A stretch of 64,000 nucleotides of DNA from TPA_inf: Saccharomyces (Eukaryota): assembly GCA_000146045.2 (NCBI GenBank), contig BK006949.2, positions 832,001-896,000 of the forward strand, read 5' to 3'. This document shows positions 1,459-48,386 of the stretch, piece by piece. The translations under genes were made by a program, and so were the position numbers. Numbering within the stretch: position 1 is the first letter of the stretch; every line of letters begins with the position of its first letter. Under the pieces are notes generated by a model, which was given only the letters and a program-made list of their open reading frames with translations, had not been told where the DNA came from and made no database searches.

Positions 1459-1688
1459 GGCGATTCTGTGTTACTGAACTGTCTTTCTCTTTATAATACA
1501 TATCAGAATCTCTTTCGGACACTATTTCCTCTTTCTTCAATTATATTGTTTTCTCTTTCATTGCCGAAGAAAAAAAGAAACATACTGAAAGTTGATAAAT
1601 ATGCAATAATAAAACCTTTTCCTACTCTTGACGCTTCTGTATAAGATAAAAACTGCCAACAAGATCAGTTCCAACTTCCTGCCGTATT

Positions 1689-3212: not shown

Positions 3213-3562
3213 GTCGTTTTTCTCTTTATATACTTCATTCATTTGTTCTCCATTATGGCCAAACCTTTCATAAATTGAACGAAGTTCTACCTTTGGTGTT
3301 GTTATCCCTAGAATTTTTTTCTAATGAGTATGAATTTAAGTAACCTTTTTTTTTCTTTTTTTTTAAACAGATATATCGTATATGGAGGATAATAGTACAT
3401 CACTTATGATATGAGCGAGAAAATCTGTCTTTTTAGTAAAAAAGTATAAAAAGTAAAAAGGCGTCGATTTTGCGTTGATTTCTTTATATTTACGTCTGTA
3501 CAAAAAATACATTAAGAATATATTCAATATCTTCCCTTTCTTCTTCCCCAGCAGGCTATACG

Positions 3563-5413: not shown

Positions 5414-5908
5414 TTAAGAATATTAATTAAGGAACCTGCAATTTTGCAATAGGACTATTTTGTTGACTTTGTTGTTATTACTAAGTTTTAAAGTGGAAAA
5501 GAATTCCGACCCTTTGTTTAGTGAGTGGGGGTCAATCAAATTCGTATTCCTCGGTCAAATGAGGAGGAATGTAAAAACCGAAAATAAAGTCATCGCATAG
5601 GTACAAGAAGAATGAACTTGAGAAGTTCAAATTTCTAATTCAATTTTTTTTTTTTTCTATACATATAAATTAATAAAGTTACTCACGGTTTGAAGGTCAA
5701 TCAATATATTTGTTTAGGATAGCAATAGATAAAAGAACAATAGAGAAAGAATGTAAAATACGTAAAAATATATGTACATTACTGTCGGATAATGGTTTGA
5801 ATGCATGTTTGATATGTTTGCTTATGTTTGCTTATGTTTGCTTATGTTTTTATCATTACTACTACTATAATTTTTCATTATTATGCTCGATTCGTAAAAT
5901 CGTTACTC

Positions 5909-7777
5909 TTATTCAATACTATCTATGGAATAATCCTTCTTGGATAACTTATGTCTCAAACCTTTGCCCCAGTAAGAAAATGCAAAAGGTAAAGCAATCA
6001 TAGCAGTGGAGATGAAAGCCAACAACCAAGAACCCCAGTGCAGATTCAATTTGTGGTACATTTGAATGGTAAACAAGGGGAAGGCAGCACCACCGGCGGA
6101 TCTTAAGAAAACCTTTGTAGCCAGAGCACTGGATGCGTATTGGACGTAGCAATCAATAATGTAATTATTCAATGAATAATAAATCAACACCATACCGAAA
6201 CCAAAAGCTAAACCAGCTGAAGCTGGACCAACCCAAATAATATGTTTATAAGCGGTAGCACCCAGGATCCATAAAGCAATTGCAGCAAATGGAGCACCGA
6301 TCTTAGCACCTAGCAAACGATCTTCAGGAGTAGGTTTACGCTGTTTGACAATTTGTAAATACTTGTTTTCACAGTAGAAAGTTGTGGCTAACGCCCAAAG
6401 AGCACCGATAACAATAGGAATAAACATCAAACCCACAAGGTTGTCTTTGTAGCCATATAGTTCACCGAAAATGACAGGGAAGGCAAAGAAGAACGCATAT
6501 AGTAGAGAGTAAATCAAACACACGTAGAAACAAGTAGCAACTAGAACAGGTTCAGTGACAGAGAAGTACAAAGGTCTCAACAGACAAGCCCTCATCATTT
6601 CACCCATACTGACACCTTGCGCTTCCTGCTCAGTCATAATCTTGGGATTACCAGTTTCCTTTCTTAATCTAGCAGCCTTTCTCTTCAAGATAACTGGAGC
6701 GTACGTTTCTGGGATGGCAGAAGATATGATCCACATAACACCTGCAAAGGCCATATTGACCCAGAAAATCAGGTCCATACGTCCGGTAGAAACGGAAATA
6801 AAACCGTTAACTAGTGGACCAACAACGGGACCAACGTAAGGAGCAAAAGCGAAGAAAGCAATAGCCTTACCTCTTGTTTCACTTGGGAACATATCGGCAA
6901 TAGACCCACCAACTAAACACAAACCAGATGATGACCAAACACCACATAAAAATCTACAAGCTAAAAGACTACCTAGATTTGGAGCTAAGGCGCAAGGGAT
7001 ATTGAAGATGACATAAAGACCCATAGAAACAAAGTAAGCAACTCTTCTACCGTAAAGATCACTAACAGGAGACCAAATCAAAGGACCCAGCGAGAACCCA
7101 ATAACCATTAAAGAAACCGATAAAATAGCGGCTTCCATACCTACATGGTATTTCTTTTCAACGGTTCCCAACCCACCACTGATACAAGCAGACCCGTAGG
7201 CGACACAAATAACTAAGATTGACAGTAGGACAGTGTAACTCCAACGGATCCATGCAGGCCAGTTATGGGGGTTTTCTGGATCGCCAGTCACAAAGGTAAC
7301 GAATTCAATTTCCGGATCTAGATCTGGAGCTTCGTCATTCGCACCACTAGAGTCGCCTTCTTTACCCTTTTCGTTATTATCACTTTCTAAAGCATCTTCA
7401 TTAGAAGAAGGCGAAGAAGCGCCATCGATCTGTCTAGTTCTCGTACGGGAAATCGCAGTAGAAGTTCTACCTATGGAATGTAGAGTGGCGACAGGAACTA
7501 AACCTGTAGGGGTTTCTAAAGTATATTCTTCAGGAAAAATCTTATTCTTGCTAGATTGAGGAGCATTAACATCAGGAACGGGGGCTTTGGAGCTCACACC
7601 CATGTCCTGCAATGACTTCACGGTTTCCGTCCGGGTCAACTTCAGTTGATTAGGAGCCATGTTGGATTTAGATCCACTCTCTGAAGGGATATATTGTTGC
7701 GGCTGCTGACTTTCTACATCAGACAACGAAGATGTTTCGTCTGAATTAAACGAATTTATGGATTCCTGTCTGTTCAT
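5909..7777 (-). CDS. TPO3: MFS polyamine/drug:H+ antiporter (DHA1 family), 622 aa, 12 predicted transmembrane segments after a long hydrophilic N-terminus
   Basis: Long hydrophobic-helix-rich ORF with MFS-like motifs (e.g. GPLIWSPVSDLYGRR). The 622 aa length matches TPO3. Confidence 0.8.
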   Translation of the reverse strand: MNRQESINSFNSDETSSLSDVESQQPQQYIPSESGSKSNMAPNQLKLTRTETVKSLQDMGVSSKAPVPDVNAPQSSKNKIFPEEYTLETPTGLVPVATLHSIGRTSTAISRTRTRQIDGASSPSSNEDALESDNNEKGKEGDSSGANDEAPDLDPEIEFVTFVTGDPENPHNWPAWIRWSYTVLLSILVICVAYGSACISGGLGTVEKKYHVGMEAAILSVSLMVIGFSLGPLIWSPVSDLYGRRVAYFVSMGLYVIFNIPCALAPNLGSLLACRFLCGVWSSSGLCLVGGSIADMFPSETRGKAIAFFAFAPYVGPVVGPLVNGFISVSTGRMDLIFWVNMAFAGVMWIISSAIPETYAPVILKRKAARLRKETGNPKIMTEQEAQGVSMGEMMRACLLRPLYFSVTEPVLVATCFYVCLIYSLLYAFFFAFPVIFGELYGYKDNLVGLMFIPIVIGALWALATTFYCENKYLQIVKQRKPTPEDRLLGAKIGAPFAAIALWILGATAYKHIIWVGPASAGLAFGFGMVLIYYSLNNYIIDCYVQYASSALATKVFLRSAGGAAFPLFTIQMYHKLNLHWGSWLLAFISTAMIALPFAFSYWGKGLRHKLSKKDYSIDSIE

Positions 7778-9265
7778 TTCTGTTTATCTTTGGCTAGAGG
7801 AGTACTAATGCAAAATTAAAATAATGAAGTAAGAAGGGAGAAAGTAATTAGTTATATTAGAAAACTAGACCACGAAATTTGTAGTATAATTATGGGTATG
7901 ACAATTAAAGAATTAGGGTGAACGCTACCGGTGAGGACAAAAAAGGCTGAACGAAGAAGAAAAATAAAAAGAAGATTAGATCAACGCACCTAGACGAAAA
8001 AGAGCAAATACTGCTTATTGTATTCACTTTGGAGAACAGGTTGTAACAGGACAGCTGACAATTGCTAAGTTAAGTAGATTACAAAGACAAATGTTCTTAG
8101 GCGAAAAGAATATATAAACTAAAAGAAAAAGTGGAAAAAGGGTACGTGTAAAAAGAGACTAGGATGGTTGAGCAGCGAATGATTGCAAGATATATAAAAG
8201 AAACGAGCCAGTTTTACAGCGTTTAACGCAGATCCAGAATATGAACAAAATGCATTAGGAAATAAATGAAAAAAATGGCTCTATGGATCAGGGATCATCA
8301 TGGCTGCCGGAAACTACGCCGTTCTGTTTTGTTTTTGTTTTTCCTTTTTCCCGTTTGGGTGAAATCAGTGAGCTGTTCCGATCCGTTGGGCGAAGACATT
8401 GCCGCAGTGACGAAGCCCGGCTAGTCCGATTGGGCTCCAGTAAACCCCTCGCCAAGCACAGAGAAGCTAGTCAGAGGCCCGCTAGACTGTACTTACTGGT
8501 CTTTAGCACACGACGACCGTACTTTGCACGTGGCTGCAGACACATTTTGTATGGAGGGAATGCTTGATTATATAAAGAGCTCTGTTTTTATGTTACCCGT
8601 CCAACGTTCTCACCCGGCTCCGCGCTATTTTTTTTTTTTTTTTTTTTTTTTTTCAGACCCACACAAAATCCGCGTAGCCGAGATTGCTTATGTATGTTAT
8701 CATATTGCCTGTTTGAGATATGCAGGATCAGCATAGCATGTCTCTAACCAAATTGTGGGTCAGTCAATTATGTTGCTCTTTTGGGTATACGCTTTCACCG
8801 GATTCTCGAGAAATCGTATAATGCATGCCCCAAAGCAGTGGCCGTTCTCGGAAAAATAAAAATAGTTTATATCTCAATTTAGTTATATGGCTATGACGGA
8901 AACGACAAAATCAAATTGAAACTTAGAAAAAATAAAAAACAGCGCATTATTAAGGTTTCATGACTCCGTATTCGCTGTCCTACGTGTAAATAGGAAGAAG
9001 AAAAAAGTGAAAAAGGAAGAACCCTTCTTTTGAAGGAAAGCATAACTCGTTACTCATACGACGGATGCGAGATATACTCTCTACGTAGTTGTACTAGCCG
9101 AATGAAAAAAGAGAAAGTTCCGAATATGTAAAATTGAAATTTCTCTTCTTTATAATAGAACTAACAATTGAACTTTCCTTTTCTTTTGAAGCTACCGTCA
9201 ATGACAAAGAAGGCAGCTTTGATAAAGTACTCAATAGGTAAAGCAAACTTCAATTCAGTTAGCGA

Positions 9266-10669
9266 ATGCATTGCGTACTAGCGCGAATATTGTTATGGTT
9301 CTTAATAGTAGATCTAAGCGTCATACGGGCGCTTGTCCTTCCACCATTGAAAGATTATGATCCGTTAGAGCCTTTGATGAAAAGAGACATGGCCATGGGT
9401 CAACGGAACAGATTCAAAGTCGACGGCCAATTGCCGCCCATACTAAATTCCACAGATGTGACAGATGATCAGAGAAGTCTGCATACGCCTGGAGAGATTC
9501 CATCTTATGTCATCAATCATTGTCCCTTAGTGCACTTGTATAGCGAAGAGAAATATTGGCCATCGGACATTGCTGAGTACGTTCAAAACTTCCAAATTAA
9601 AGATAAAAACGGCAATTCTATATCCACTCATGAAAATTTGACACTGCATGACTTGAAGGCGGAATACCACGTAGATTTATTTGGCAACAAAACGGAAACG
9701 CATATCCCCAGTAGCGAGGTATTTTTAACCAGTTTGGACGATTTCGACAAGGACCCTAAATGGTTGCTCGGTCATCTACCCGAATACGGAACAGGCTACA
9801 ACTCTAAGGCGCCTGCTATTCTGATCGTAGTCGACAAGGGGAACGGGTGGGTTGATGCGTTCTGGTTTTTCTTCTACCCATTCAATCATGGCCCTTTTAT
9901 TATGGGCCATGGACCCTGGGGCAATCACGTCGGTGACTGGGAACACTCTTTGGTTCGGTTTTATAAAGGTATTCCAAAATATCTTTGGATGAGTGCGCAT
10001 TCCAGTGGAACAGGCTACAGATACGAAGCTGTTGAGAAATTTAAGAAACTACGGAAAAGAAAACAGCAAGATAGTGACGATGGTGGGGATACTATACTGG
10101 AAAGACCGTTGATTTTTAGTGCTAGAGGCACGCATGCTAATTATGCATCCGCTGGGCAGCATGCTCATGACATTCCTTTTTTTTTCATGCCTTTGAGTGA
10201 TTTTACCGATCGTGGTCCCCTGTGGGATCCATCTTTGAACTTTTACTCCTATACTTTTGATGGTAAAACTGTGACACCCTCCTCAGAGAGAGAAGAATCT
10301 CTCGGTTTGGATTGGTTGCATTTTCAAGGTGGATGGGGTGATCAACAACTACCAGCTAGAGATCCAAGACAGAAATGGTGCGTAGCTCAATGGAAGTATA
10401 TCGGAGGTCCTCGTGGCCCCCTGTTTAAGAAATTGGATAGATTGAATCTATGCGGCGGTGTGAAAAAGTGGAATTTCTGGAATGGTGGCTGCCCCGCAAG
10501 AAGATTGATAAAAAAAGCAGAAGGCTTGGACTCTGAGAGCACTGATCTTATGGGTGATAATTGTGGTGTCCTACTCTATAGAATCAGACCAAAATGGCTG
10601 AGAGGAATTCTAAGATTTCTAATGTGGAGAGGTATACTCTGTTCTCTTATGGAATTTTTCACCAATTGA
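9266..10669 (+). CDS. TDA6: Vps62-family protein with an N-terminal signal/anchor, 467 aa
   Basis: 467 aa ORF with a hydrophobic N-terminus. Length and position match YPR157W. Confidence 0.7.
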   Translation: MHCVLARILLWFLIVDLSVIRALVLPPLKDYDPLEPLMKRDMAMGQRNRFKVDGQLPPILNSTDVTDDQRSLHTPGEIPSYVINHCPLVHLYSEEKYWPSDIAEYVQNFQIKDKNGNSISTHENLTLHDLKAEYHVDLFGNKTETHIPSSEVFLTSLDDFDKDPKWLLGHLPEYGTGYNSKAPAILIVVDKGNGWVDAFWFFFYPFNHGPFIMGHGPWGNHVGDWEHSLVRFYKGIPKYLWMSAHSSGTGYRYEAVEKFKKLRKRKQQDSDDGGDTILERPLIFSARGTHANYASAGQHAHDIPFFFMPLSDFTDRGPLWDPSLNFYSYTFDGKTVTPSSEREESLGLDWLHFQGGWGDQQLPARDPRQKWCVAQWKYIGGPRGPLFKKLDRLNLCGGVKKWNFWNGGCPARRLIKKAEGLDSESTDLMGDNCGVLLYRIRPKWLRGILRFLMWRGILCSLMEFFTN

Positions 10670-11261
10670 AGAACTTTATGACAACAGAATGTTCTGATTG
10701 TAATATAATGACAAATTTTAATCTTTAGTAATATCTAATATAATAGTTAATGATAAATAGTTAATTCTAATGTTTAATGATCTGCAAATACTTTTTATGT
10801 TTTTCAACATAGTTTTTAATGTGTTTCTACACTTGATCGCAACTAAATCTAAATAAACACACAAGCACAAAATATGATAAAAAAGCAATTTGGCTAGAAG
10901 CACAGGAACCAAATATGACGTTCAATTCAAATAGACCCTTATTTCTGGTCTTGTTCATCAGTCCCTGATGTCTTGCTCTTTCCTTCTGCAATTGATAGCG
11001 CCACACTTCTCAAAAGCAGTGGAAAAAAAAATCATTTCCCAGAAGAACGCGAGAGAACTCCATAGAAAAAAGGGAACTTTCCTACTCAAAAGAGAAAGGG
11101 AAAAATAATTGCGATATATCTTATAGCCTTTTTTTTTTTCCAACTTTCTATTTTTGTAAAAATGAAAATTTCCTTCATAAGCTACAATAAGACTACTCCA
11201 TCCCTTGTTTCCTCAACGCACCGAACTCGATAGGACTGGTCGTAAAACAGAAAACTGACTA

Positions 11262-12020
11262 ATGGCTGCCGCATGCATTTGTCAACCTAATCTTCTTGAG
11301 ATTAATGTATCTGATGGACCACTGGATATGATCCGCAAGAAAAGAAAAATACAACAGCCGCAACTACGTCCACCCCTTCGAGAGAATAAATGCCAACCAC
11401 ACTTTTCTGTACGAAAGGTAAACCAGTCTTACATAATTTCTCTCCATAAAGAAATCACATGCCAACTCATTGCAGAAATTGTCAAACAAAAGTTATCGAG
11501 GATTTGGGAAAAAGTATACATACCATCTTATGAACTGATATCAGACAAAGACGGTAATCAAATTTATGTGGAACAGAGTGTCGACGAAAATAGGCTAACT
11601 TCTGAGATTATGGAGAAACTGGACCCCAACAATATTGATATAGAGGCGATCGAAATATTATTCGACGACTATCACCTAGAATTATCACGCTTGACAAACG
11701 GTATTATTATATCTAGTGCCAATGATCACTTTTACAGGGAATTCTCCTTCAATAACATAATTGATGACAACTTTAAAATTTGTGGAACAAGCATGTCTGC
11801 AGACAGTTTTGATAAGATTTATGGCGTTATGTGGATTGAAGTACCTTTCAATGGCAATGGCTTACAGAATGATAGCGCCGTTAATAGGGTTTCAACATCT
11901 CACAATCAGATAGAAGAATTGAATGACATAGAGCAGGAGATAAGAGCTTTTAATATTAGTCGAAGTAATCAAGAAAGTATCATCAAAAAGGAAGTATCTA
12001 GAAGATTGAATGGGCGGTAA
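11262..12020 (+). CDS. CUR1: Sorting factor/chaperone-cofactor-like protein, 252 aa
   Basis: 252 aa ORF immediately upstream of the Ty1 pair. Length and context match YPR158W. Confidence 0.7.
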   Translation: MAAACICQPNLLEINVSDGPLDMIRKKRKIQQPQLRPPLRENKCQPHFSVRKVNQSYIISLHKEITCQLIAEIVKQKLSRIWEKVYIPSYELISDKDGNQIYVEQSVDENRLTSEIMEKLDPNNIDIEAIEILFDDYHLELSRLTNGIIISSANDHFYREFSFNNIIDDNFKICGTSMSADSFDKIYGVMWIEVPFNGNGLQNDSAVNRVSTSHNQIEELNDIEQEIRAFNISRSNQESIIKKEVSRRLNGR

Positions 12021-12359
12021 GAAATACGGGCTACGGAATTTACCGTGTGTCTTCAAATTGAGTGTCACCCTGTAAGGCTTTCTACTCTATCACAAAATAT
12101 TACATATTCTAATTCTACAATTATAGATATCAAACTTGATAAATTTAGTAGCAAATATGAAGTATTATTATGCATTTCAAAAAATTCCATTGTCCCTTCT
12201 CTTGGGCGCTTGAATTCTAAAAAAAATTAGCGCATCGCTAATAGCGCGTTTGAACCCGTCTTAAGAATGTTCATACCAGTATCAACAAGGGGTATGTTCC
12301 TCAGCATTATCTGAAGGTACTCCTCTAAATTTTTAAGTAAGAAAAGGCGTATAGTCATA

Positions 12360-12411
12360 TAATTGTTGGGAATCCACCACTGATAAAGGTTATAATATCA
12401 GGTAAAGAAAT
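12360..12411 (-). repeat. Older, diverged delta (Ty1/Ty2 LTR) remnant, U5-proximal part in reverse orientation, split by the Ty1 copy 1 insertion
   Basis: The reverse complement reads ...tacctgatattataacctttatcagtggtggattcccaacaatt, which is homologous to the 3' part of a delta LTR. It continues, across Ty1 copy 1, in the 18341-18494 fragment. Confidence 0.55.
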
Positions 12412-12749
12412 TGTTGGAATAAAAATCCACTATCGTCTATCAACTAATAGTTATATTATCAATATATTATCATATACGGTGTTAAGATGATGACATAAGT
12501 TATGAGAAGCTGTCATCGATGTTAGAGGAAGCTGAAACGCAAGGATTGATAATGTAATAGGATCAATGAATATAAACATATAAAACGGAATGAGGAATAA
12601 TCGTAATATTAGTATGTAGAAATATAGATTCCATTTTGAGGATTCCTATATCCTCGAGGAGAACTTCTAGTATATTCTGTATACCTAATATTATAGCCTT
12701 TATCAACAATGGAATCCCAACAATTATCTAATTACCCACATATATCTCA
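12412..12749 (+). repeat. Ty1 copy 1, 5' LTR (delta)
   Basis: Begins TGTTGGAATAAAAATCC and ends ...CCCACATATATCTCA. It is identical in length to the 3' LTR at 18003-18340. Confidence 0.9.
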
Positions 12750-14031
12750 TGGTAGCGCCTGTGCTTCGGTTACTTCTAAGGAAGTCCACACAAATCAAGA
12801 TCCGTTAGACGTTTCAGCTTCCAAAATTCAAGAATATGATAAGGCTTCCACTAAGGCTAACTCTCAACAGACAACAACACCTGCTTCATCAGCTGTTCCA
12901 GAGAACCCCCATCATGCCTCTCCTCAACCTGCTTCAGTACCACCTCCACAGAATGGGCCGTACCCACAGCAGTGCATGATGACCCAAAACCAAGCCAATC
13001 CATCTGGTTGGTCATTTTACGGACACCCATCTATGATTCCGTATACACCTTATCAAATGTCGCCTATGTACTTTCCACCTGGGCCACAATCACAGTTTCC
13101 GCAGTATCCATCATCAGTTGGAACGCCTCTGAGCACTCCATCACCTGAGTCAGGTAATACATTTACTGATTCATCCTCAGCGGACTCTGATATGACATCC
13201 ACTAAAAAATATGTCAGACCACCACCAATGTTAACCTCACCTAATGACTTTCCAAATTGGGTTAAAACATACATCAAATTTTTACAAAACTCGAATCTCG
13301 GTGGTATTATTCCGACAGTAAACGGAAAACCCGTACGTCCGATCACTGATGATGAACTCACCTTCTTGTATAACACTTTTCAAATATTTGCTCCCTCTCA
13401 ATTCCTACCTACCTGGGTCAAAGACATCCTATCCGTTGATTATACGGATATCATGAAAATTCTTTCCAAAAGTATTGAAAAAATGCAATCTGATACCCAA
13501 GAGGCAAACGACATTGTGACCCTGGCAAATTTGCAATATAATGGCAGTACACCTGCAGATGCATTTGAAACAAAAGTCACAAACATTATCGACAGACTGA
13601 ACAATAATGGCATTCATATCAATAACAAGGTCGCATGTCAATTAATTATGAGAGGTCTATCTGGCGAATATAAATTTTTACGCTACACACGTCATCGACA
13701 TCTAAATATGACAGTCGCTGAACTGTTCTTAGATATCCATGCTATTTATGAAGAACAACAGGGATCGAGAAACAGCAAACCTAATTACAGGAGAAATCCG
13801 AGTGATGAGAAGAATGATTCTCGCAGCTATACGAATACAACCAAACCCAAAGTTATAGCTCGGAATCCTCAAAAAACAAATAATTCGAAATCGAAAACAG
13901 CCAGGGCTCACAATGTATCCACATCTAATAACTCTCCCAGCACGGACAACGATTCCATCAGTAAATCAACTACTGAACCGATTCAATTGAACAATAAGCA
14001 CGACCTTCATCTTAGGCCAGAAACTTACTGA
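12709..14031 (+). CDS. TYA: Ty1 TYA (Gag capsid protein), 440 aa; initiation lies inside the 5' LTR
   Basis: MESQQLSNY...LHLRPETY matches the canonical Ty1 Gag. It ends just past the CTTAGGC frameshift heptamer. Confidence 0.95.
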
Positions 14032-17000
14032 ATCTACAGTAAATCATACTAATCATTCTGATGATGAACTCCCTGGACACCTCCTTCTCGATTCAGGAGC
14101 ATCACGAACCCTTATAAGATCTGCTCATCACATACACTCAGCATCATCTAATCCTGACATAAACGTAGTTGATGCTCAAAAAAGAAATATACCAATTAAC
14201 GCTATTGGTGACCTACAATTTCACTTCCAGGACAACACCAAAACATCAATAAAGGTATTGCACACTCCTAACATAGCCTATGACTTACTCAGTTTGAATG
14301 AATTGGCTGCAGTAGATATCACAGCATGCTTTACCAAAAACGTCTTAGAACGGTCTGACGGCACTGTACTTGCACCTATCGTAAAATATGGAGACTTTTA
14401 CTGGGTATCTAAAAAGTACTTGCTTCCATCAAATATCTCCGTACCCACCATCAATAATGTCCATACAAGTGAAAGTACACGCAAATATCCTTATCCTTTC
14501 ATTCATCGAATGCTTGCGCATGCCAATGCACAGACAATTCGATACTCACTTAAAAATAACACCATCACGTATTTTAACGAATCAGATGTCGACTGGTCTA
14601 GTGCTATTGACTATCAATGTCCTGATTGTTTAATCGGCAAAAGCACCAAACACAGACATATCAAAGGTTCACGACTAAAATACCAAAATTCATACGAACC
14701 CTTTCAATACCTACATACTGACATATTTGGTCCAGTTCACAACCTACCAAAAAGTGCACCATCCTATTTCATCTCATTTACTGATGAGACAACAAAATTC
14801 CGTTGGGTTTATCCATTACACGACCGTCGCGAGGACTCTATCCTCGATGTTTTTACTACGATACTAGCTTTTATTAAAAACCAGTTTCAGGCCAGTGTCT
14901 TGGTTATACAAATGGACCGTGGTTCTGAGTATACTAACAGAACTCTCCATAAATTCCTTGAAAAAAAAAATGGTATAACTCCATGCTATACAACCACAGC
15001 GGATTCCCGAGCACATGGAGTCGCTGAACGGCTAAACCGTACCTTATTAGATGACTGCCGTACTCAACTGCAATGTAGTGGTTTACCGAACCATTTATGG
15101 TTCTCTGCAATCGAATTTTCTACTATTGTGAGAAATTCACTAGCTTCACCTAAAAGCAAAAAATCTGCAAGACAACATGCTGGCTTGGCAGGACTTGATA
15201 TCAGTACTTTGTTACCTTTCGGTCAACCTGTTATCGTCAATGATCACAACCCTAACTCCAAAATACATCCTCGTGGCATCCCAGGCTACGCTCTACATCC
15301 GTCTCGAAACTCTTATGGATATATCATCTATCTTCCATCCTTAAAGAAGACAGTAGATACAACTAACTATGTTATTCTTCAGGGCAAGGAATCCAGATTA
15401 GATCAATTCAATTACGACGCACTCACTTTCGATGAAGACTTAAACCGTTTAACTGCTTCATATCATTCGTTCATTGCGTCAAATGAGATCCAAGAATCCA
15501 ATGATCTTAACATAGAATCTGACCATGACTTCCAATCCGACATTGAACTACATCCTGAGCAACCGAGAAATGTCCTTTCAAAAGCTGTGAGTCCAACCGA
15601 TTCCACACCTCCGTCAACTCATACTGAAGATTCGAAACGTGTTTCTAAAACCAATATTCGCGCACCCAGAGAAGTTGACCCCAACATATCTGAATCTAAT
15701 ATTCTTCCATCAAAGAAGAGATCTAGCACCCCCCAAATTTCCAATATCGAGAGTACCGGTTCGGGTGGTATGCATAAATTAAATGTTCCTTTACTTGCTC
15801 CCATGTCCCAATCTAACACACATGAGTCGTCGCACGCCAGTAAATCTAAAGATTTCAGACACTCAGACTCGTACAGTGAAAATGAGACTAATCATACAAA
15901 CGTACCAATATCCAGTACGGGTGGTACCAACAACAAAACTGTTCCGCAGATAAGTGACCAAGAGACTGAGAAAAGGATTATACACCGTTCACCTTCAATC
16001 GATGCTTCTCCACCGGAAAATAATTCATCGCACAATATTGTTCCTATCAAAACGCCAACTACTGTTTCTGAACAGAATACCGAGGAATCTATCATCGCTG
16101 ATCTCCCACTCCCTGATCTACCTCCAGAATCTCCTACCGAATTCCCTGACCCATTTAAAGAACTCCCACCGATAAATTCTCATCAAACTAATTCCAGTTT
16201 GGGTGGTATTGGTGACTCTAATGCCTATACTACTATCAACAGTAAGAAAAGATCATTAGAAGATAATGAAACTGAAATTAAGGTATCACGAGACACATGG
16301 AATACTAAGAATATGCGTAGTTTAGAACCTCCGAGATCGAAGAAACGAATTCACCTGATTGCAGCTGTAAAAGCAGTAAAATCAATCAAACCAATACGGA
16401 CAACCTTAAGATACGATGAGGCAATCACCTATAATAAAGATATTAAAGAAAAGGAAAAATATATCGAAGCATACCACAAAGAAGTCAACCAACTATTGAA
16501 AATGAATACTTGGGACACTGACAAATATTATGACAGAAAAGAAATAGACCCTAAAAGAGTAATAAATTCAATGTTTATCTTCAACAGGAAACGTGACGGT
16601 ACTCATAAAGCTAGATTTGTTGCAAGAGGTGATATTCAGCATCCTGACACTTACGACTCAGGCATGCAATCCAATACCGTACATCACTATGCATTAATGA
16701 CATCCCTGTCACTTGCATTAGACAATAACTACTATATTACACAATTAGACATATCTTCGGCATATTTGTATGCAGACATCAAAGAAGAATTATACATAAG
16801 ACCTCCACCACATTTAGGAATGAATGATAAGTTGATACGTTTGAAGAAATCACTTTATGGATTGAAACAAAGTGGAGCGAACTGGTACGAAACTATCAAA
16901 TCATACCTGATAAAACAGTGTGGTATGGAAGAAGTTCGTGGATGGTCATGCGTATTTAAGAATAGTCAAGTAACAATTTGCTTATTCGTTGATGATATGA

Positions 17001-17980
17001 TATTGTTCAGCAAAGACTTAAATGCAAATAAGAAAATCATAACAACACTCAAGAAACAATACGATACAAAGATAATAAATCTGGGTGAAAGTGATAACGA
17101 AATTCAGTACGACATACTTGGCTTAGAAATCAAATATCAAAGAGGTAAATACATGAAATTAGGTATGGAAAACTCATTAACTGAGAAAATACCCAAATTA
17201 AACGTACCTTTGAATCCAAAAGGAAGAAAACTTAGCGCTCCAGGTCAACCAGGTCTTTATATAGACCAGGATGAACTAGAAATAGATGAAGATGAATACA
17301 AAGAGAAGGTACATGAAATGCAAAAGTTGATTGGTCTAGCTTCATATGTTGGATATAAATTTAGATTTGACTTACTATACTACATCAACACACTTGCTCA
17401 ACATATACTATTCCCCTCTAGGCAAGTTTTAGACATGACATATGAGTTAATACAATTCATGTGGGACACTAGAGATAAACAACTGATATGGCACAAAAAC
17501 AAACCTACCGAGCCAGATAATAAACTAGTCGCAATAAGTGATGCTTCATATGGTAACCAACCATATTACAAGTCACAAATTGGCAACATATATTTACTTA
17601 ATGGAAAGGTAATTGGAGGAAAGTCCACCAAGGCTTCATTAACATGTACTTCAACTACGGAAGCAGAAATACACGCGATAAGTGAATCTGTCCCATTATT
17701 AAATAACCTCAGTCACCTTGTGCAAGAACTTAACAAGAAACCAATTACTAAAGGATTACTAACCGACAGTAAATCTACAATCAGTATAATTATATCCAAT
17801 AATGAAGAGAAATTTAGAAACAGATTTTTTGGTACTAAAGCAATGAGACTAAGAGATGAAGTATCAGGAAATCATCTGCACGTATGCTATATCGAAACCA
17901 AAAAGAATATTGCAGACGTAATGACCAAACCTCTTCCGATAAAAACATTCAAACTATTAACAAACAAATGGATTCATTAG
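12709..17980 (+). CDS. TYB: Ty1 TYA-TYB Gag-Pol fusion (protease, integrase, reverse transcriptase/RNase H) made by +1 ribosomal frameshifting at CTT-AGG-C (14011-14017): join(12709..14013,14015..17980)
   Basis: The heptamer CTTAGGC is at 14011-14017. The downstream 1240 aa open frame is +1 relative to TYA. Integrase signatures are [15 protein letters not shown] and DRGSEYTN; the reverse transcriptase signatures include the YVDD-like [11 protein letters not shown]. Confidence 0.9.
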
Positions 17981-18002
17981 ATCTATTACATTATGGGTGG
18001 TA

Positions 18003-18340
18003 TGTTGGAATAAAAATCCACTATCGTCTATCAACTAATAGTTATATTATCAATATATTATCATATACGGTGTTAAGATGATGACATAAGTTATGAGAAG
18101 CTGTCATCGATGTTAGAGGAAGCTGAAACGCAAGGATTGATAATGTAATAGGATCAATGAATATAAACATATAAAACGGAATGAGGAATAATCGTAATAT
18201 TAGTATGTAGAAATATAGATTCCATTTTGAGGATTCCTATATCCTCGAGGAGAACTTCTAGTATATTCTGTATACCTAATATTATAGCCTTTATCAACAA
18301 TGGAATCCCAACAATTATCTAATTACCCACATATATCTCA
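18003..18340 (+). repeat. Ty1 copy 1, 3' LTR (delta)
   Basis: TGTTGGAATA...ATATATCTCA, preceded by the PPT GGGTGGTA. Confidence 0.9.
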
Positions 18341-18494
18341 GAAATTTTACTAGAAGTTCATTATCCTATTACTTATCAATCCTTGCATTTCAGCTTTCAT
18401 TAAATGTGCTCACTGTTTCTCAATCTTTATGCCATATTTTTGCACCGTATACGATAACATGCAAATAGTACGAATACTAATCGATATGTGATGG
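18341..18494 (-). repeat. Older diverged delta remnant (U3-proximal part, reverse orientation) carrying an internal deletion; it continues the 12360-12411 fragment
   Basis: The reverse complement reads tgttggaataagaatcaaccatc...gaaagctgaaatgcaaggattgataagtaataggataatgaacttctagta. That is recognisably delta, but about 15-20 percent diverged from the Ty1 LTRs here. Confidence 0.6.
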
Positions 18495-18613
18495 TTGATT
18501 CTTATTCCAACAATTATCTTGAACTTCAATCAACTCTCGCAGTTGTCACGTGCAATTTGATACATGTCGCGTTGATATACAAGTACTAAATACGGTACAC
18601 AATGGATTATTTC

Positions 18614-18628
18614 TGTTGTATCTCAAAA
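18614..18628 (+). repeat. First 15 nt of a Ty3 sigma solo LTR (TGTTGTATCTCAAAA), separated from the rest of sigma by the Ty1 copy 2 insertion
   Basis: Matches the sigma 5' terminus exactly. The remaining 326 nt of sigma resume at 24560, after the duplicated CAAAA. Confidence 0.7.
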
Positions 18629-18988
18629 TGAGAAATGGGTGAATGTTGAGATAATTGTTGGGATTCCATTGTTGATAAAGGCTATAATATTAGGTATACA
18701 GAATATACTAGAAGTTCTCCTCGAGGATATAGGAATCCTCAAAATGGAATCTATATTTCTACATACTAATATTACGATTATTCCTCATTCCGTTTTATAT
18801 GTTTATATTCATTGATCCTATTACATTATCAATCCTTGCGTTTCAGCTTCCTCTAACATCGATGACAGCTTCTCATAACTTATGTCATCATCTTAACACC
18901 GTATATGATAATATATTGATAATATAACTATTAGTTGATAGACGATAGTGGATTTTTATTCCAACATACCACCCATAATGTAATAGAT

Positions 18989-21900
18989 CTAATGAATCCA
19001 TTTGTTTGTTAATAGTTTGAATGTTTTTATCGGAAGAGGTTTGGTCATTACGTCTGCAATATTCTTTTTGGTTTCGATATAGCATACGTGCAGATGATTT
19101 CCTGATACTTCATCTCTTAGTCTCATTGCTTTAGTACCAAAAAATCTGTTTCTAAATTTCTCTTCATTATTGGATATAATTATACTGATTGTAGATTTAC
19201 TGTCGGTTAGTAATCCTTTAGTAATTGGTTTCTTGTTAAGTTCTTGCACAAGGTGACTGAGGTTATTTAATAATGGGACAGATTCACTTATCGCGTGTAT
19301 TTCTGCTTCCGTAGTTGAAGTACATGTTAATGAAGCCTTGGTGGACTTTCCTCCAATTACCTTTCCATTAAGTAAATATATGTTGCCAATTTGTGACTTG
19401 TAATATGGTTGGTTACCATACGAAGCATCACTTATTGCGACTAGTTTATTATCTGGCTCGGTAGGTTTGTTTTTGTGCCATATCAGTTGTTTATCTCTAG
19501 TGTCCCACATGAATTGTATCAACTCATATGTCATGTCTAAAACTTGCCTAGAGGGGAATAGTATATGTTGAGCAAGTGTGTTGATGTAGTATAGTAAGTC
19601 AAATCTAAATTTATATCCAACATATGAAGCTAGACCAATCAACTTTTGCATTTCATGTACCTTCTCTTTGTATTCATCTTCATCTATTTCTAGTTCATCC
19701 TGGTCTATATAAAGACCTGGTTGACCTGGAGCGCTAAGTTTTCTTCCTTTTGGATTCAAAGGTACGTTTAATTTGGGTATTTTCTCAGTTAATGAGTTTT
19801 CCATACCTAATTTCATGTATTTACCTCTTTGATATTTGATTTCTAAGCCAAGTATGTCGTACTGAATTTCGTTATCACTTTCACCCAGATTTATTATCTT
19901 TGTATCGTATTGTTTCTTGAGTGTTGTTATGATTTTCTTATTTGCATTTAAGTCTTTGCTGAACAATATCATATCATCAACGAATAAGCAAATTGTTACT
20001 TGACTATTCTTAAATACGCATGACCATCCACGAACTTCTTCCATACCACACTGTTTTATCAGGTATGATTTGATAGTTTCGTACCAGTTCGCTCCACTTT
20101 GTTTCAATCCATAATGTGATTTCTTCAAACGTATCAACTTATCATTCATTCCTAAATGTGGTGGAGGTCTTATGTATAATTCTTCTTTGATGTCTGCATA
20201 CAAATATGCCGAAGATATGTCTAATTGTGTAATATAGTAGTTATTGTCTAATGCAAGTGACAGGGATGTCATCAACGCATAATGATGTACAGTGTTGGAT
20301 TGCATACCTGTATCGTACGTATCAGGATGCTGAATGTCACCTCTTGCAACAAATCTAGCTTTATGAGTTCCGTCACGTTTCTTGTTGAAGATAAACATTG
20401 AATTTATTACTCTTTTGGGGTCTATTTCTTTTCTGTCATAATATCTGTCAGTGTCCCAAGTTTTCATCTTCAACAGTTGGTTGACTTCTTTGTGGTATGC
20501 TTCGATATATTTTTCTTTTTCTTTAATATCTTTATTATAGGTGATTGCCTCATCGTATCGTAAGGTTGTTCGTATTGGTTTGATTGATTTTACTGCTTTT
20601 ACAGCTGCAATCAGGTGAATTCGTTTCTTCGATCTCGGAGGTTCTAAACTACGCATATTCTTAGTATTCCATGTGTCTCGTGATACCTTAATTTCAGTTT
20701 CATTATCTTCTAATGATCTTTTCTTACTGTTGATAGTAGTATAGGCATTAGAGTCACCAATACCACCCAAACTGGAATTAGTTTGACGAGAATTGATCGG
20801 TGGAAGTTCTTTAAAGGAGTCTGATAATTCGGTAGGAGGTTCTGGAGGCGGATCGGGAAGTGGGAGATCAGCGATAATAGATTCCTCGGTATTCTGTTCA
20901 GAAACAGTAGTTGGCGTTTTGATAGGAACAATATTGTGCGATGAATTATTTTCCGGTGGAGAAGCATCGATTGAAGGTGAACGGTGTATAATCCTTTTCT
21001 CAGTCTCCTGGTCGCTTATCTGCGGAACAGTTTTGTTGTTGGTACCACCCGTACTGGATATTGGTACGTTTGTATGATTAGTCTCATTGTTACTGTACGA
21101 GTCTGAGTGTCTGAAATCTTTAGATTTACTGGCGTGCGACGACTCATGTGTGTTAGATTGGGACATGGGAGCAAGTAAAGGAACATTTAATTTATGCATA
21201 CCACCCGAACCGGTACTCTCGATATTGGAAATTTGGGGGGTGCTAGATCTCTTCTTTGATGGAAGAATATTAGATTCAGATATGTTGGGGTCAACTTCTC
21301 TGGGTGCACGAAGATTGATTTCAGATATAGGTTTTGAATCTTCAGTATGAGTTGACGGAGGTGTGGAATCGGTTGGACTCACAGCTTTTGAAAGGACATT
21401 TCTCGGTTGCTCAGGATGTAGTTCAATGTCAGATTGGAAGTCATGGTCAGATTCTATGTTAAGATCATTGGATTCTTGGATCTCATTTGACGCAATGAAC
21501 GAATGATATGAAGCAGTTAAACGGTTTAAGTCTTCATCGAAAGTGAGTGCGTCGTAATTGAATTGATCTAATCTGGATTCCTTGCCCTGAAGAATAACAT
21601 AGTTAGTTGTATCTACTGTCTTCTTTAAGGATGGAAGATAGATGATATATCCATAAGAGTTTCGAGACGGATGTAGAGCGTAACCTGGGATGCCACGAGG
21701 ATGTATTTTGGAGTTAGGGTTGTGATCATTGACGATAACAGGTTGACCGAAAGGTAACAAAGTACTGATATCAAGTCCTGCCAAGCCAGCATGTTGGCTT
21801 GCAGATTTTTTGCTTTTAGGTGAAGCTAGTGAATTTCTCACAATAGTAGAAAATTCGATTGCAGAGAACCATAAATGGTTCGGTAAACCACTACATTGCA

Positions 21901-24257
21901 GTTGAGTACGGCAGTCATCTAATAAGGTACGGTTGAGCCGTTCAGCGACTCCATGTGCTCGGGAATCCGCTGTGGTTGTATAGCATGGAGTTATACCATT
22001 TTTTTCAAGGAATTTATGGAGAGTTCTGTTAGTATACTCAGAACCACGGTCCATTTGTATAACCAAGACACTGGCCTGAAATTGGTTTTTAATGAAAGCT
22101 AGTATCGTGGTAAATACATCGAGGATAGAGTCCTCGCGACGGTCGTGCAATGGATAAACCCAACGGAATTTTGTTGTCTCATCAGTAAATGAGATGAAAT
22201 AGGATGGTGCACTTTTTGGTAGGTTGTGAACTGGACCAAATATGTCAGTATGTAGGTATTGAAAGGGTTCGTATGAATTTTGGTATTTTAGTCGTGAACC
22301 TTTGATATGTCTGTGTTTGGTGCTTTTGCCGATTAAACAATCAGGACATTGATAGTCAATAGCACTAGACCAGTCGACATCTGATTCGTTAAAATACGTG
22401 ATGGTGTTATTTTTAAGTGAGTATCGAATTGTCTGTGCATTGGCATGCGCAAGCATTCGATGAATGAAAGGATAAGGATATTTGCGTGTACTTTCACTTG
22501 TATGGACATTATTGATGGTGGGTACGGAGATATTTGATGGAAGCAAGTACCTTTTAGATACCCAGTAAAAGTCTCCATATTGTACGATAGGTGCAAGTAC
22601 AGTGCCGTCAGATCGTTCTAAGACGTTTTTGGTAAAGCATGCTGTGATATCTACTGCAGCCAATTCATTCAAACTGAGTAAGTCATAGGCTATGTTAGGA
22701 GTGTGCAATACCTTTATTGATGTTTTGGTGTTGTCCTGGAAGTGAAATTGTAGGTCACCAATAGCGTTAATTGGTATATTTCTTTTTTGAGCATCAACTA
22801 CGTTTATGTCAGGATTAGATGATGCTGAGTGTATGTGATGAGCAGATCTTATAAGGGTTCGTGATGCTCCTGAATCGAGAAGGAGGTGTCCAGGGAGTTC
22901 ATCATCAGAATGATTAGTGTGATTTACCGTAGATTCAGTAAGTTCCTGGCCTAAGGTGAAGGTCGTGCTTATTGTTCAATTGAATCGGTTCAGTAGTTGA
23001 TTTACTGATGGAATCGTTGTCCGTGCTGGGAGAGTTATTAGATGTGGATACATTGTGAGCCCTGGCTGTTTTCGATTTCGAATTATTTGTTTTTTGAGGA
23101 TTCCGAGCTATAACTTTGGGTTTGGTTGTATTCGTATAGCTGCGAGAATCATTCTTCTCATCACTCAGATTTCTCCTGTAATTAGGTTTGCTGTTTCTCG
23201 ATCCCTGTTGTTCTTCATAAATAGCATGGATATCTAAGAACAGTTCAGCGACTGTCATATTTAGATGTCGATGACGTGTGTAGCGTAAAAATTTATATTC
23301 GCCAGATAGACCTCTCATAATTAATTGGCATGCGACCTTGTTATTGATATGAATGCCATTATTGTTCAGTCTGTCGATAATGTTTGTGACTTTTGTTTCA
23401 AATGCATCTGCAGGTGTACTGCCATTATATTGCAAATTTGCCAGGGTCACAATGTCGTTTGCCTCTTGGGTATCAGATTGCATTTTTTCAATACTTTTGG
23501 AAAGAATTTTCATGATATCCGTATAATCAACGGATAGGATGTCTTTGACCCAGGTAGGTAGGAATTGAGAGGGAGCAAATATTTGAAAAGTGTTATACAA
23601 GAAGGTGAGTTCATCATCAGTGATCTGACGTACGGGTTTTCCGTTTACTGTCGGAATAATACCACCGAGATTCGAGTTTTGTAAAAATTTGATGTATGTT
23701 TTAACCCAATTTGGAAAGTCATTAGGTGAGGTTAACATTGGTGGTGGTCTGACATATTTTTTAGTGGATGTCATATCAGAGTCTGCTGAGGATGAATCAG
23801 TAAATGTATTACCTGACTCAGGTGATGGAGTGCTCAGAGGCGTTCCAACTGATGATGGATACTGCGGAAACTGTGATTGTGGCCCAGGTGGAAAGTACAT
23901 AGGCGACATTTGATAAGGTGTATACGGAATCATAGATGGGTGTCCGTAAAATGACCAACCAGATGGATTGGCTTGGTTTTGGGTCATCATGCACTGCTGT
24001 GGGTACGGCCCATTCTGTGGAGGTGGTACTGAAGCAGGTTGAGGAGAGGCATGATGGGGGTTCTCTGGAACAGCTGATGAAGCAGGTGTTGTTGTCTGTT
24101 GAGAGTTAGCCTTAGTAGAAGCCTTCTCACATTCTTCTGTTTTGGAAGCTGAAACGTCTAACGGATCTTGATTTGTGTGGACTTCCTTAGAAGTAACCGA
24201 AGCACAGGCGCTACCATGAGAAATGGGTGAATAATTAGATAATTGTTGGGATTCCAT
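18989..24257 (-). CDS. TYB: Ty1 Gag-Pol fusion, copy 2, via +1 frameshift at CTTAGGC: complement(join(18989..22951,22953..24257))
   Basis: Intact 1239 aa Pol frame carrying the same integrase, RT and RNase H motifs as copy 1. Confidence 0.9.
22935..24257 (-). CDS. TYA: Ty1 TYA (Gag), 440 aa, copy 2
   Basis: [14 protein letters not shown]...LHLRPGTY. The frameshift heptamer is at 22949-22955 (minus strand). Confidence 0.95.
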
Positions 24258-24554
24258 TGTTGATAAAGGCTATAATATTAGGTATACAGAATATACTAGA
24301 AGTTCTCCTCGAGGATATAGGAATCCTCAAAATGGAATCTATATTTCTACATACTAATATTACGATTATTCCTCATTCCGTTTTATATGTTTATATTCAT
24401 TGATCCTATTACATTATCAATCCTTGCGTTTCAGCTTCCTCTAACATCGATGACAGCTTCTCATAACTTATGTCATCATCTTAACACCGTATATGATAAT
24501 ATATTGATAATATAACTATTAGTTGATAGACGATAGTGGATTTTTATTCCAACA

Positions 24555-24885
24555 CAAAATGAGATATGTCAGTATGACAATACGTCATCCTGAACGTTCA
24601 TAAAACACATATGAAACAACCTTATAACAAAACGAACAACATGAGACAAAACCCGTCCTTCCCTAGCTGAACTACCCAAAAGTATAAATGCCTGAACAAT
24701 TAGTTTAGATCCGAGATTCCGCGCTTCCACCACTTAGTATGATTCATATTTTATATAATATATAAGATAAGTAACATTCCGTGAATTAATCTGATAAACT
24801 GTTTTGACAACTGGTTACTTCCCTAAGACTGTTTATATTAGGATTGTCAAGACACTCCGGTATTACTCGAGCCCGTAATACAACA
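24555..24885 (+). repeat. Ty3 sigma solo LTR (main part), ending 16 bp upstream of tA(AGC)
   Basis: ...CAAAATGAGATATGTCAGTATGACAATACGTC ... CTCGAGCCCGTAATACAACA is the sigma consensus. Its position 16-17 bp upstream of a tRNA gene is the hallmark of Ty3 integration. Confidence 0.85.
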
Positions 24886-24901: not shown

Positions 24902-24974
24902 GGGCGTGTGGCGTAGTCGGTAGCGCGCTCCCTTAGCATGGGAGAGGTCTCCGGTTCGATTCCGGACTCGTCCA
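24902..24974 (+). tRNA. tA(AGC): tRNA-Ala (anticodon AGC)
   Basis: GGGCGTGTGGCGTAGTCGGTAGCGCGCTCCCTTAGCATGGGAGAGGTCTCCGGTTCGATTCCGGACTCGTCCA has the A-box/B-box, an AGC anticodon loop, and a downstream T-rich terminator. Confidence 0.9.
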
Positions 24975-28378: not shown

Positions 28379-28449
28379 GCGCAAGTGGTTTAGTGGTAAA
28401 ATCCAACGTTGCCATCGTTGGGCCCCCGGTTCGATTCCGGGCTTGCGCA
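28379..28449 (+). tRNA. tG(GCC): tRNA-Gly (anticodon GCC)
   Basis: GCGCAAGTGGTTTAGTGGTAAAATCCAACGTTGCCATCGTTGGGCCCCCGGTTCGATTCCGGGCTTGCGCA, followed by a TTTTATTTTTT terminator. Confidence 0.9.
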
Positions 28450-48369: not shown

Positions 48370-48386
48370 ATTATATTGTTAAAGAT

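Follow-up and report, generated by a model that had tools for sequence, protein, structure and literature searches.

The inverted Ty1 pair YPRWTy1-3/YPRCTy1-4 on yeast chromosome XVI: probable origin from two independent insertions and possible latent fragility

Inverted Ty pairs form a class of recombination and fragile sites that has been described since 2005, and two Ty1 elements that face each other on chromosome XVI's right arm raise the question of how such a pair came about and whether it should be counted among these sites. We addressed this in a window of 64,000 nucleotides (the whole stretch analysed; BK006949.2, positions 832,001 to 896,000), in which a first-pass annotation had reported two full-length, tail-to-tail Ty1 elements and had interpreted them as break-prone. 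All positions below are those of the window.

When 832,000 is added, the outer limits of the two elements become chrXVI 844412-850340 (Watson) and 850629-856554 (Crick), and 4/4 element boundaries match those in SGD. The coordinates and strands of YPRWTy1-3 and YPRCTy1-4 on S288C chrXVI are listed in the S1 Data of PMC9879454, and a delta between them, YPRCdelta22, is named in PMC3102749. Since the boundaries equal those of YPRWTy1-3 and YPRCTy1-4, the pair was already annotated, and the extents read from the sequence (12412-18340 on the plus strand, 18629-24554 on the minus strand) were exact to the base. The flanking genes, encoding a KRE6-family protein of 720 aa and a phosphorylase of 902 aa, fit this chromosome, the right telomere of which lies ~91.5 kb from the pair. 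The pair is the catalogued YPRWTy1-3/YPRCTy1-4 of S288C, a known feature. Assemblies are notoriously prone to error at Ty1 elements, and the arrangement might thus be artefactual, with dispersed copies collapsed or wrongly joined. We consider this extremely improbable: an independent chromosome-scale assembly (L007) was 100% identical over the 20.8 kb compared (all of copy 1 and the spacer, and 3.4 kb at the inner end of copy 2), both elements are listed in a Nanopore re-sequencing of S288c (PMC9879454), and array-CGH borders fall at the pair (PMC3102749, PMC2712687). Because both the independent assembly and the Nanopore sequence carry the pair, an artefact was rejected. The features of the two elements are as follows.

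12359-12404, minus: old delta fragment of 46 bp just outside copy 1 (Ty1 LTR nt 271-316, 85% identity; LTR blastn against the window)
12407-12411 and 18341-18345: left and right target-site duplication of copy 1, GAAAT, intact 5 bp
12412-18340, plus: Ty1 copy 1, YPRWTy1-3, 5929 bp (repeat finder, alignment, SGD coordinates, Pfam)
12412-12749 and 18003-18340, plus: LTRs of copy 1, 338 bp each, identical
12709-14031, plus: TYA (Gag) of copy 1, 440 aa (ORF list, Pfam)
12750-12759, plus: PBS of copy 1, TGGTAGCGCC, located as a motif
14011-14017, plus: +1 frameshift heptamer CTTAGGC of copy 1, TYB frame running to the stop at 17978-17980
14961-14970, plus: run of ten A (A10) within the integrase-coding part of copy 1, against A7 in copy 2; the sole indel between the arms
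17995-18002, plus: PPT of copy 1, GGGTGGTA, located as a motif
18624-18628 and the first 5 nt from 24555: left and right target-site duplication of copy 2, CAAAA, intact 5 bp
18629-24554, minus: Ty1 copy 2, YPRCTy1-4, 5926 bp (repeat finder, alignment, SGD coordinates)
18629-18966 (3') and 24217-24554 (5'), minus: LTRs of copy 2, with 3 clustered differences
18967-18974, minus: PPT of copy 2, GGGTGGTA, located as a motif
22935-24257, minus: TYA of copy 2, 440 aa (ORF list)
22949-22955, minus: frameshift site CTTAGGC of copy 2, TYB stop at 18989-18991
24207-24216, minus: PBS of copy 2, TGGTAGCGCC, located as a motif

The geometry of the pair was then compared with that first described. A repeat finder returned inverted arms at 12412-14967/21999-24554 and 14964-18340/18629-22005, the inner ends of which are 288 nt apart, bearing out the claimed spacer of 288 bp. 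The elements meet tail-to-tail, with the 3' LTRs of copy 1 (18003-18340) and copy 2 (18629-18966) facing each other. Global alignment of copy 1 with the reverse complement of copy 2 gave 5837 matches in 5929 columns, with 89 mismatches and a single 3-nt gap; the arm identity, left for exact measurement by the first-pass annotation, is therefore 98.45% over 5.9 kb. A repeat of this length and identity cannot have arisen by chance. The whole inverted structure is a quasi-palindrome of 12.1 kb, in agreement with the roughly 12 kb estimated before.

Both elements show the full-length hallmarks of Ty1/copia (Pseudoviridae), namely LTRs, a 5-bp target-site duplication, PBS and PPT, a +1 frameshift, and the expected domain order. 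Full-length Ty1 LTRs are about 334-338 bp long, directly oriented and bounded by TG...CA; those observed here are 338 bp, in direct orientation, with ends TGTTGG...TCTCA. The PBS of Ty1 is complementary to initiator tRNA-Met. CTTAGGC occurs in frame once per copy, and reconstruction across the +1 frameshift gave stop-free Gag-Pol proteins of 1756 aa (copy 1) and 1755 aa (copy 2). Pfam placed the domains in the order TYA (775 bits), Pol_BBD, rve, SH3_retrovirus, RVT_2, and the catalytic motifs DSGAS, HHCC, D,D,E, FVDD and RNase H are present in both copies. The proteins are near-identical, as had been stated, with 440/440 aa for Gag and 1240/1239 aa for TYB in the ORF list and 30 aa differences in Gag-Pol, and the one extra codon noticed in the TYB of copy 1 matches the single 3-nt indel between the arms. 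At this indel, the A10 run of copy 1 encodes an additional Lys; it falls within the integrase D,D(35)E motif, after the second D and before the E, and makes the D-to-E spacing 36 rather than the usual 35. With the ORFs, frameshift site, PBS and PPT all located in intact form, as the first reading had it, the integrity of the sequences suggests that both copies would be competent for transposition.

The surroundings of the pair bear on its origin, and the features of the spacer and of the DNA beyond copy 2 are these.

18341-18628: spacer of 288 bp between the facing 3' LTRs
18357-18512, minus: degenerate solo delta inside the spacer, probably YPRCdelta22 (73.6% identity)
18614-18628, plus: first 15 nt of a sigma element at the end of the spacer, split off by copy 2
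24555-24885, plus: remainder of that sigma (Ty3 LTR nt 11-341), so that copy 2 sits within sigma
24902-24974, plus: tRNA-Ala(AGC), a Pol III gene downstream of the sigma and the Ty1 sites

Ty1 integration is normally directed by the integrase to DNA upstream of Pol III genes, within a window of about 750 bp in the case of tRNA genes, and Ty3/sigma inserts at the Pol III transcription start. Both Ty1 sites are inside the ~750 bp window upstream of tRNA-Ala(AGC): copy 2 lies 347 bp from the gene, and copy 1 would have been 630 bp away before copy 2 arrived. The locus is in this respect a textbook example of a Ty cluster upstream of a tRNA gene, with the same nested and adjacent Ty1, delta and sigma sequences within ~650 bp and repeated hits at this region in other strains, and we see no difference from that class. 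A further sigma, at 48386-48726, is 94% identical to the one split by copy 2.

Comparison of 19 assemblies provided the order of events that we propose. Both copies were found in 1 assembly and copy 1 alone in 2 (L001 and L016), where the site of copy 2 is clean and the sigma intact; the rest have neither copy, and 13 assemblies are empty at both Ty1 sites. In other strains, this sigma is the site of a different element, which is Ty2-like, or of the solo LTR of that element. W303-1A is likewise listed with the copy 1 allele and without YPRCTy1-4 (PMC9879454). Two independent Ty1 integrations in opposite orientations upstream of tRNA-Ala(AGC) would give the inverted pair. Copy 1, common to W303-type strains, would have inserted first, and copy 2, seen only in the S288C-type allele, would have landed later, 15 nt into the pre-existing sigma. 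Independent insertion is supported by the distinct target-site duplications (GAAAT and CAAAA), the 1.55% difference between the arms, and the intermediate allele with copy 1 only.

The palindromic layout would also be expected if the pair stemmed from a single event, that is, a foldback or breakage-fusion-bridge inverted duplication of one Ty1, and inverted Ty fusions have been seen experimentally, with YMLWTy1-2 as an example (PMC3102749). We nevertheless give such an origin almost no credence. The two copies are flanked by separate, perfect target-site duplications of 5 bp, the flanking DNA is not duplicated, the arms differ at 89 positions plus one indel, and the unique 288-bp spacer is colinear with, and in the same orientation as, alleles without either Ty1. 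It was on the separate duplications and on the intermediate allele, with its clean sigma at the copy 2 site, that this origin was rejected. An inversion between the arms was rejected as well, given the intact duplications and the colinearity of the spacer with empty alleles. As a separate observation, the LTRs of copy 1 show 0 differences and those of copy 2 show 3, which at face value dates copy 2 as the older element and conflicts with the distribution of alleles. Because all three differences lie within 4 nt, they may represent one conversion patch.

We next turned to the recombination record of the pair. Duplication borders have been placed at it (PMC2712687, PMC3102749), a YPRCTy1-4 junction has been reported (PMC7467729), and the pair was used in mec1 sml1, msh2 and rtt109 mutants and in dicentric resolution (PMC3102749, PMC2712687). 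A Rad52-dependent 40-kb deletion between two chrXVI Ty1 elements has also been described (bioRxiv 10.64898/2026.09.25.754379), in a study the methods of which target YPRCTy1-2 and YPRCTy1-4. The elements act as non-allelic recombination junctions, including for the 40-kb deletion with YPRCTy1-2 by SSA. The documented behaviour of the pair is that of ordinary dispersed Ty1 homology, with GCR, BIR, translocation borders and SSA. Among 112 Ty912-mediated rearrangements in an S288C-derived wild type, XVI-R duplications numbered 0, against 17 at FS1 and 11 at FS2, the hotspots of that assay. XVI-R duplications were raised in msh2, rtt109, asf1 and rlf2 mutants, as would fit if homology or chromatin, and not breakage, were limiting. 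The wild-type data argue against strong spontaneous fragility of the pair. We therefore favor, with a probability of about 0.85, the joint reading that the locus is YPRWTy1-3/YPRCdelta22/YPRCTy1-4, that it was built by two independent integrations, and that it acts as ordinary dispersed Ty1 homology, with hairpin fragility as a structural prediction.

That prediction starts from the strong folding of the centre of the pair. The central 1 kb, taken as single-stranded DNA, folds to -408.8 kcal/mol versus -82.6 for shuffled sequences (z = -44). The facing LTRs mismatch at 8 of their final 20 nt, which would enlarge the hairpin loop to ~328 nt. A long single-stranded lagging-strand template could fold at this point into a hairpin with a loop of ~328 nt and a stem that starts with 772 perfect bp, and such a hairpin might make the locus fragile when replication is under stress, as a conditional site like FS2.

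FS2 is reportedly an inverted Ty1 pair described as a fragile site by Lemoine et al. in 2005. According to PMC3778018, this chromosome III pair consists of two Ty1 elements ~280 bp apart and becomes hot when Pol alpha is low, whereas a spacer of 1.8 kb renders it more stable. The two loci are much alike: each has two ~6 kb full-length inverted elements with facing LTRs and a spacer of ~280-290 bp, and both occur in S288C-related laboratory strains and are absent from YJM789. They differ in that the Crick element comes first at FS2, so that its elements diverge whereas those on chrXVI converge tail-to-tail; in that breakage at FS2 depends on polymerase and spacer and FS2 is a hotspot in wild-type GCR assays, with none of this recorded for the chrXVI pair; and in that FS2 is absent from the SGD reference annotation, in which the chrXVI pair is annotated. 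Structurally, the chrXVI pair is of the FS2 type, with full-length inverted Ty1 elements, a 288 bp spacer and 98.45% arm identity over 5.9 kb, and by this analogy FS2-like fragility is plausible.

A stronger proposal is that, with lagging-strand synthesis slowed, the pair behaves as a true fragile site of the FS2 type. The arms would form a hairpin, and its cleavage would lead to translocations, to loss of the terminal 91.5 kb, or to inverted dimers, both dicentric and acentric. The near-match to FS2 (Ty1/Ty1 arms, a spacer of 288 vs ~280 bp, 98.45% identity) speaks for this, as do the strong folding of the facing 338-bp LTRs, the finding (PMC3778018) that a delta-only inverted pair at such spacing was half as active as FS2, and the position of the pair as the sole SGD-annotated Ty1/Ty1 inverted adjacent pair in the S288c list (PMC9879454). 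On the other hand, the 0/112 count at XVI-R, the terminal LTR mismatches with the enlarged loop, and the failure of inverted pairs on chromosome IV to respond to low Pol alpha weigh against it, and we lean towards doubting it. No break mapping or low-polymerase data for the chrXVI pair were found in the literature searched. The genome-wide low-polymerase maps were made in W303-1A x YJM789 diploids, and neither parent carries the Ty1 pair (PMC9879454); a latent fragile site would have escaped these maps because the diploids are without YPRCTy1-4. We tentatively suggest that the pair may be a latent, replication-stress-dependent equivalent of FS2, private to the S288C lineage, and hold this possible, at somewhat less than even odds.

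The chromosome IV pairs are HS3 and HS4 (YDRWTy2-2/YDRCTy1-2 and YDRWTy2-3/YDRCTy1-3; PMC3616911), which are spontaneous hotspots in G1 but do not respond to low Pol alpha, and recombination at which needs both elements and a short spacer (PMC3616911). They share with the chrXVI pair the Watson-then-Crick, tail-to-tail order of adjacent full-length Ty elements and a strain-specific occurrence. They differ from it in being Ty2/Ty1 heterologous with spacers of ~25-100 bp, whereas the chrXVI pair is Ty1/Ty1 with 288 bp and no recorded hotspot activity. Inverted Alu repeats and quasi-palindromes studied in yeast by Lobachev and colleagues (cited in PMC3778018 and PMC3855049) reportedly show fragility through hairpins or cruciforms that is set by arm identity and spacer length, as for long inverted repeats in general. 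In those cases the inserts were artificial, their arms measuring ~0.3 kb and their spacers 0-100 bp, in contrast to the natural arms of 5.9 kb and effective loop of ~328 nt on chrXVI.

FS2, HS3 and HS4 together uphold the general claim of the first-pass annotation that inverted Ty pairs can be fragile when closely spaced. The same annotation had held that its reading would fall if the pair were missing from most strains and no more break-prone than single Ty1 insertions. The former is the case, since most strains are without the pair (both copies in 1/19 assemblies), and the latter is suggested by the record described above. As a whole, the earlier interpretation is partly supported.

The value of the pair as a discovery is small, as it is annotated in the most studied yeast genome. 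In practical terms, W303 and wild isolates are without the 12 kb quasi-palindrome that S288C and BY strains have on XVI-R. Among natural loci, the chrXVI pair also comes closest to a structural control for FS2, with the same arms and the same spacer in a different orientation and replication context. If it is indeed a latent equivalent of FS2, the comparison of the two could account for the response of some inverted Ty pairs, and not of others, to low Pol alpha.

When 832,000 is added to the window coordinates of copy 1 (12412-18340, plus strand, 5929 bp) and copy 2 (18629-24554, minus strand, 5926 bp), these two Ty1 elements coincide exactly with SGD YPRWTy1-3 (chrXVI 844412-850340, Watson) and YPRCTy1-4 (chrXVI 850629-856554, Crick), as listed in the supplementary Ty table of PMC9879454. 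The flanking genes, for a KRE6-family protein and a glycogen phosphorylase-type protein, are consistent with this locus, and a 252-aa upstream protein occurs in many S. cerevisiae assemblies. The pair is an already known and annotated feature, and its locus has been named "YPRWTy1-3, YPRCdelta22, YPRCTy1-4", ~91 kb from TEL16R (PMC3102749).

The repeat finder returned the arms as two segments, with a gap of 288 nt between the inner arm ends and an LTR length of 338 nt in both copies.

Segments of the inverted repeat
12412-14967/21999-24554, inverted: segment 1
14964-18340/18629-22005, inverted: segment 2, collinear with segment 1

Global alignment of 12412-18340 with the reverse complement of 18629-24554 gave an arm identity of 98.45% (5837/5929 columns), with 89 mismatches and one 3-nt gap as the sole indel. 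The coordinates, orientation and spacer length in the first-pass annotation were thereby found to be right, and the arm identity that it had proposed to measure now has a value. The 89 mismatches were clustered: 8 lay in the final 20 nt where the LTRs face each other, and 49 formed tight clusters within window 15412-16911 (1.5 kb), from the integrase C-terminal region into the first part of RT. Inside the mismatched LTR tips there were perfect stretches of 772 bp and then 594 bp; apart from the LTR tip, just 2 mismatches fell in the inner 1.47 kb of the arms. Such a mosaic suggests either a recombinant origin of the two source elements from different Ty1 lineages or past conversion of the arms. 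In a folding computation the central 1 kb, as single-stranded DNA, reached -408.8 kcal/mol versus -82.6 for shuffles, which is the expected LTR-LTR hairpin.

Intact ORFs, frameshift site, PBS and PPT, as described in the first-pass annotation, were confirmed in the sequence of both copies. The Gag frames are 440 aa long and the TYB frames 1240 aa (copy 1) and 1239 aa (copy 2), in agreement with the one additional codon previously counted by eye. In each copy the PBS TGGTAGCGCC abuts the 5' LTR on its downstream side, the PPT GGGTGGTA abuts the 3' LTR on its upstream side, and there is one in-frame CTTAGGC heptamer; with a +1 shift at this site Gag-Pol is uninterrupted, at 1756 aa in copy 1 and 1755 aa in copy 2, with 30 positions differing between them. 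Pfam domains follow the copia-type order (TYA, Pol_BBD, rve, SH3_retrovirus, RVT_2), and protease, integrase, RT and RNase H motifs were found in both copies. The sole indel is a homopolymer, A10 in copy 1 (14961-14970) versus A7 in copy 2 (21999-22005), and the longer run encodes one extra lysine within the integrase D,D(35)E motif; it falls after the second D and before the E, so that the spacing in copy 1 is 36, D,D(36)E. The A10 run recurs in two independent assemblies; a homologous locus from another assembly (L001) has A9 at this position, which would mean a frameshift unless it is a homopolymer error of long reads.

Features surrounding the pair in the window
12359-12404, minus: delta relic, 46 bp, 7 bp outside copy 1
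18357-18512, minus: degenerate solo delta in the spacer, 73.6% identity
18614-18628: sigma start, final 15 nt of the spacer
24555-24885: rest of sigma (Ty3 LTR), nt 11-341, ending 16 bp upstream of tRNA-Ala(AGC)
24902: start of tRNA-Ala(AGC)
28379-28449: third tRNA, Gly(GCC)
36901-37407: tandem repeat, ~7 copies of a 78-nt unit, 62-93% identity, within a minus-strand ORF (36645-37955, 436 aa)
48295-48370: tRNA-Ile(AAT)
48386-48726: second sigma, 94% identical to the first, 15 bp from tRNA-Ile(AAT)

Since sigma starts in the spacer and resumes at 24555, copy 2 inserted into sigma, at a point 347 bp upstream of tRNA-Ala(AGC); the insertion point of copy 1 was ~630 bp upstream of this tRNA before copy 2 arrived. 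Ty1 normally integrates in a zone upstream of Pol III genes, and both sites fall there. The delta relic is a trace of older Ty activity at tRNA-Ala. The 78-nt units are a protein-level internal repeat unrelated to the Ty pair. Both copies are flanked by perfect 5-bp target-site duplications, GAAAT at copy 1 and CAAAA at copy 2.

To follow the locus across strains, 20 loci from 19 assemblies were retrieved via two flanking proteins and aligned to the window. The first-pass annotation had held that absence of the pair from most strains, combined with breakage no more frequent than at single Ty1 insertions, would speak against its reading; the absence is what we observed, with the S288C arrangement in 1/19 assemblies (L007, 100% identical across the 20.8 kb fetched). 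Two assemblies (L001, L016) had copy 1 and, at the site of copy 2, a sigma with no insertion in it, copy 2 without copy 1 was seen in 0/19, and in 13/19 both Ty1 sites were precisely empty, with the spacer in the window's orientation. Sigma is itself polymorphic, being precisely absent from three of the 19 (L011, L013, L018). In 3/19 the same sigma is occupied by another element, Ty2-like at 84-88% identity, or by a solo LTR of it, and the tRNA-Ala upstream region has therefore been hit repeatedly.

Ty2-like element or solo LTR (locus coordinates)
L004/L012, 3197-9155
L015, 2879-9163
L014, 8838-9159

This element, full-length or as a solo LTR, sits in minus orientation at one sigma site near window position 24741. 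Its LTR is 84% identical and its 3' half 87-88%; in L015 there seems to be one additional LTR copy.

The separate target-site duplications, the 1.55% arm divergence and the intermediate allele show that the pair arose by two independent transpositions, copy 1 first. The same three observations rule out that the pair came from a foldback or BFB event, from inversion between its arms, or from misassembly. No differences separate the two LTRs of copy 1, whereas those of copy 2 (18629-18966 vs 24217-24554) have three differences within 4 nt (LTR positions 319, 321 and 322), a divergence that conflicts with the allele distribution, by which copy 1 is the older insertion. The three changes have the look of one conversion patch and not of age, and LTR-divergence dating would therefore mislead here. 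Left-flank identity to the window was above 99% in other strains; the left flank of L003 (GCA_029990685.1) is a divergent haplotype, possibly from introgression, with 87.4% identity at 139-6717 (window 1263-7924) and 95.4% at 6710-11151 (window 7946-12412).

Recombination at the pair is on record. In S288C-derived strains "the inverted YPRWTy1-3 and YPRCTy1-4 elements" bound duplicated or triplicated XVI-R segments that arise during dicentric chromosome resolution (PMC2712687). A mec1 sml1 isolate carried a 91-kb duplication bordered by the pair, and YPRWTy1-3 was among the elements targeted at least 3 times, all genotypes together (PMC3102749), while YPRCTy1-4 supplied a junction in a foldback-inversion GCR (PMC7467729). 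A 2026 preprint, whose methods target YPRCTy1-2 and YPRCTy1-4, describes a deletion of 40 kb that joins two Ty1 elements of chromosome XVI (10.64898/2026.09.25.754379); this deletion was Rad52-dependent and Rad51- and Pol32-independent, which points to SSA. All these events use the elements as homology, and none shows breaks starting at the palindrome.

The first-pass annotation had further proposed that the pair is fragile, an interpretation that is partly supported. As a class, inverted Ty pairs do include such sites: FS2, a chromosome III fragile site with two 6-kb Ty1 elements ~280 bp apart, suffers breaks when Pol alpha is low, is more stable with a spacer of 1.8 kb and keeps half of its activity even in a delta-only version (PMC3778018), and the chromosome IV inverted Ty2/Ty1 pairs HS3/HS4 require both elements and a short spacer (PMC3616911). 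By the S288c Ty list (PMC9879454), SGD annotates no other adjacent Ty1/Ty1 pair in inverted orientation, and none comes closer to FS2 in structure. Three points nevertheless weaken the inference for the pair itself. The chromosome IV inverted pairs were not low-Pol-alpha hotspots, which their authors called puzzling, and behaviour can therefore not be read from structure alone. The W303-1A x YJM789 diploids used for the genome-wide low-polymerase maps lack the pair: W303-1A has YPRWTy1-3 alone and YJM789 neither element (PMC9879454 Ty lists), in agreement with the distribution across assemblies described above. In the S288C-derived Ty912 assay, six hotspots, FS1 and FS2 among them, took most of the 112 wild-type rearrangements, and 0/112 were XVI-R duplications; XVI-R events arose in msh2, rtt109, asf1 and rlf2 mutants. 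Our literature search found no DSB, LOH or low-polymerase results on the pair. Weighing these data, we consider it possible, with a probability of about 0.35, that the pair is a measurable, stress-dependent fragile site.

Altogether, two targeted integrations produced a quasi-palindrome whose Ty1 elements are substrates for ectopic recombination. The effective hairpin loop would be ~328 nt, and its arms would be exposed together only with abnormally long lagging-strand single-stranded DNA; for this reason any fragility would be conditional, like that of FS2, and not of the spontaneous G1 type seen at HS4.
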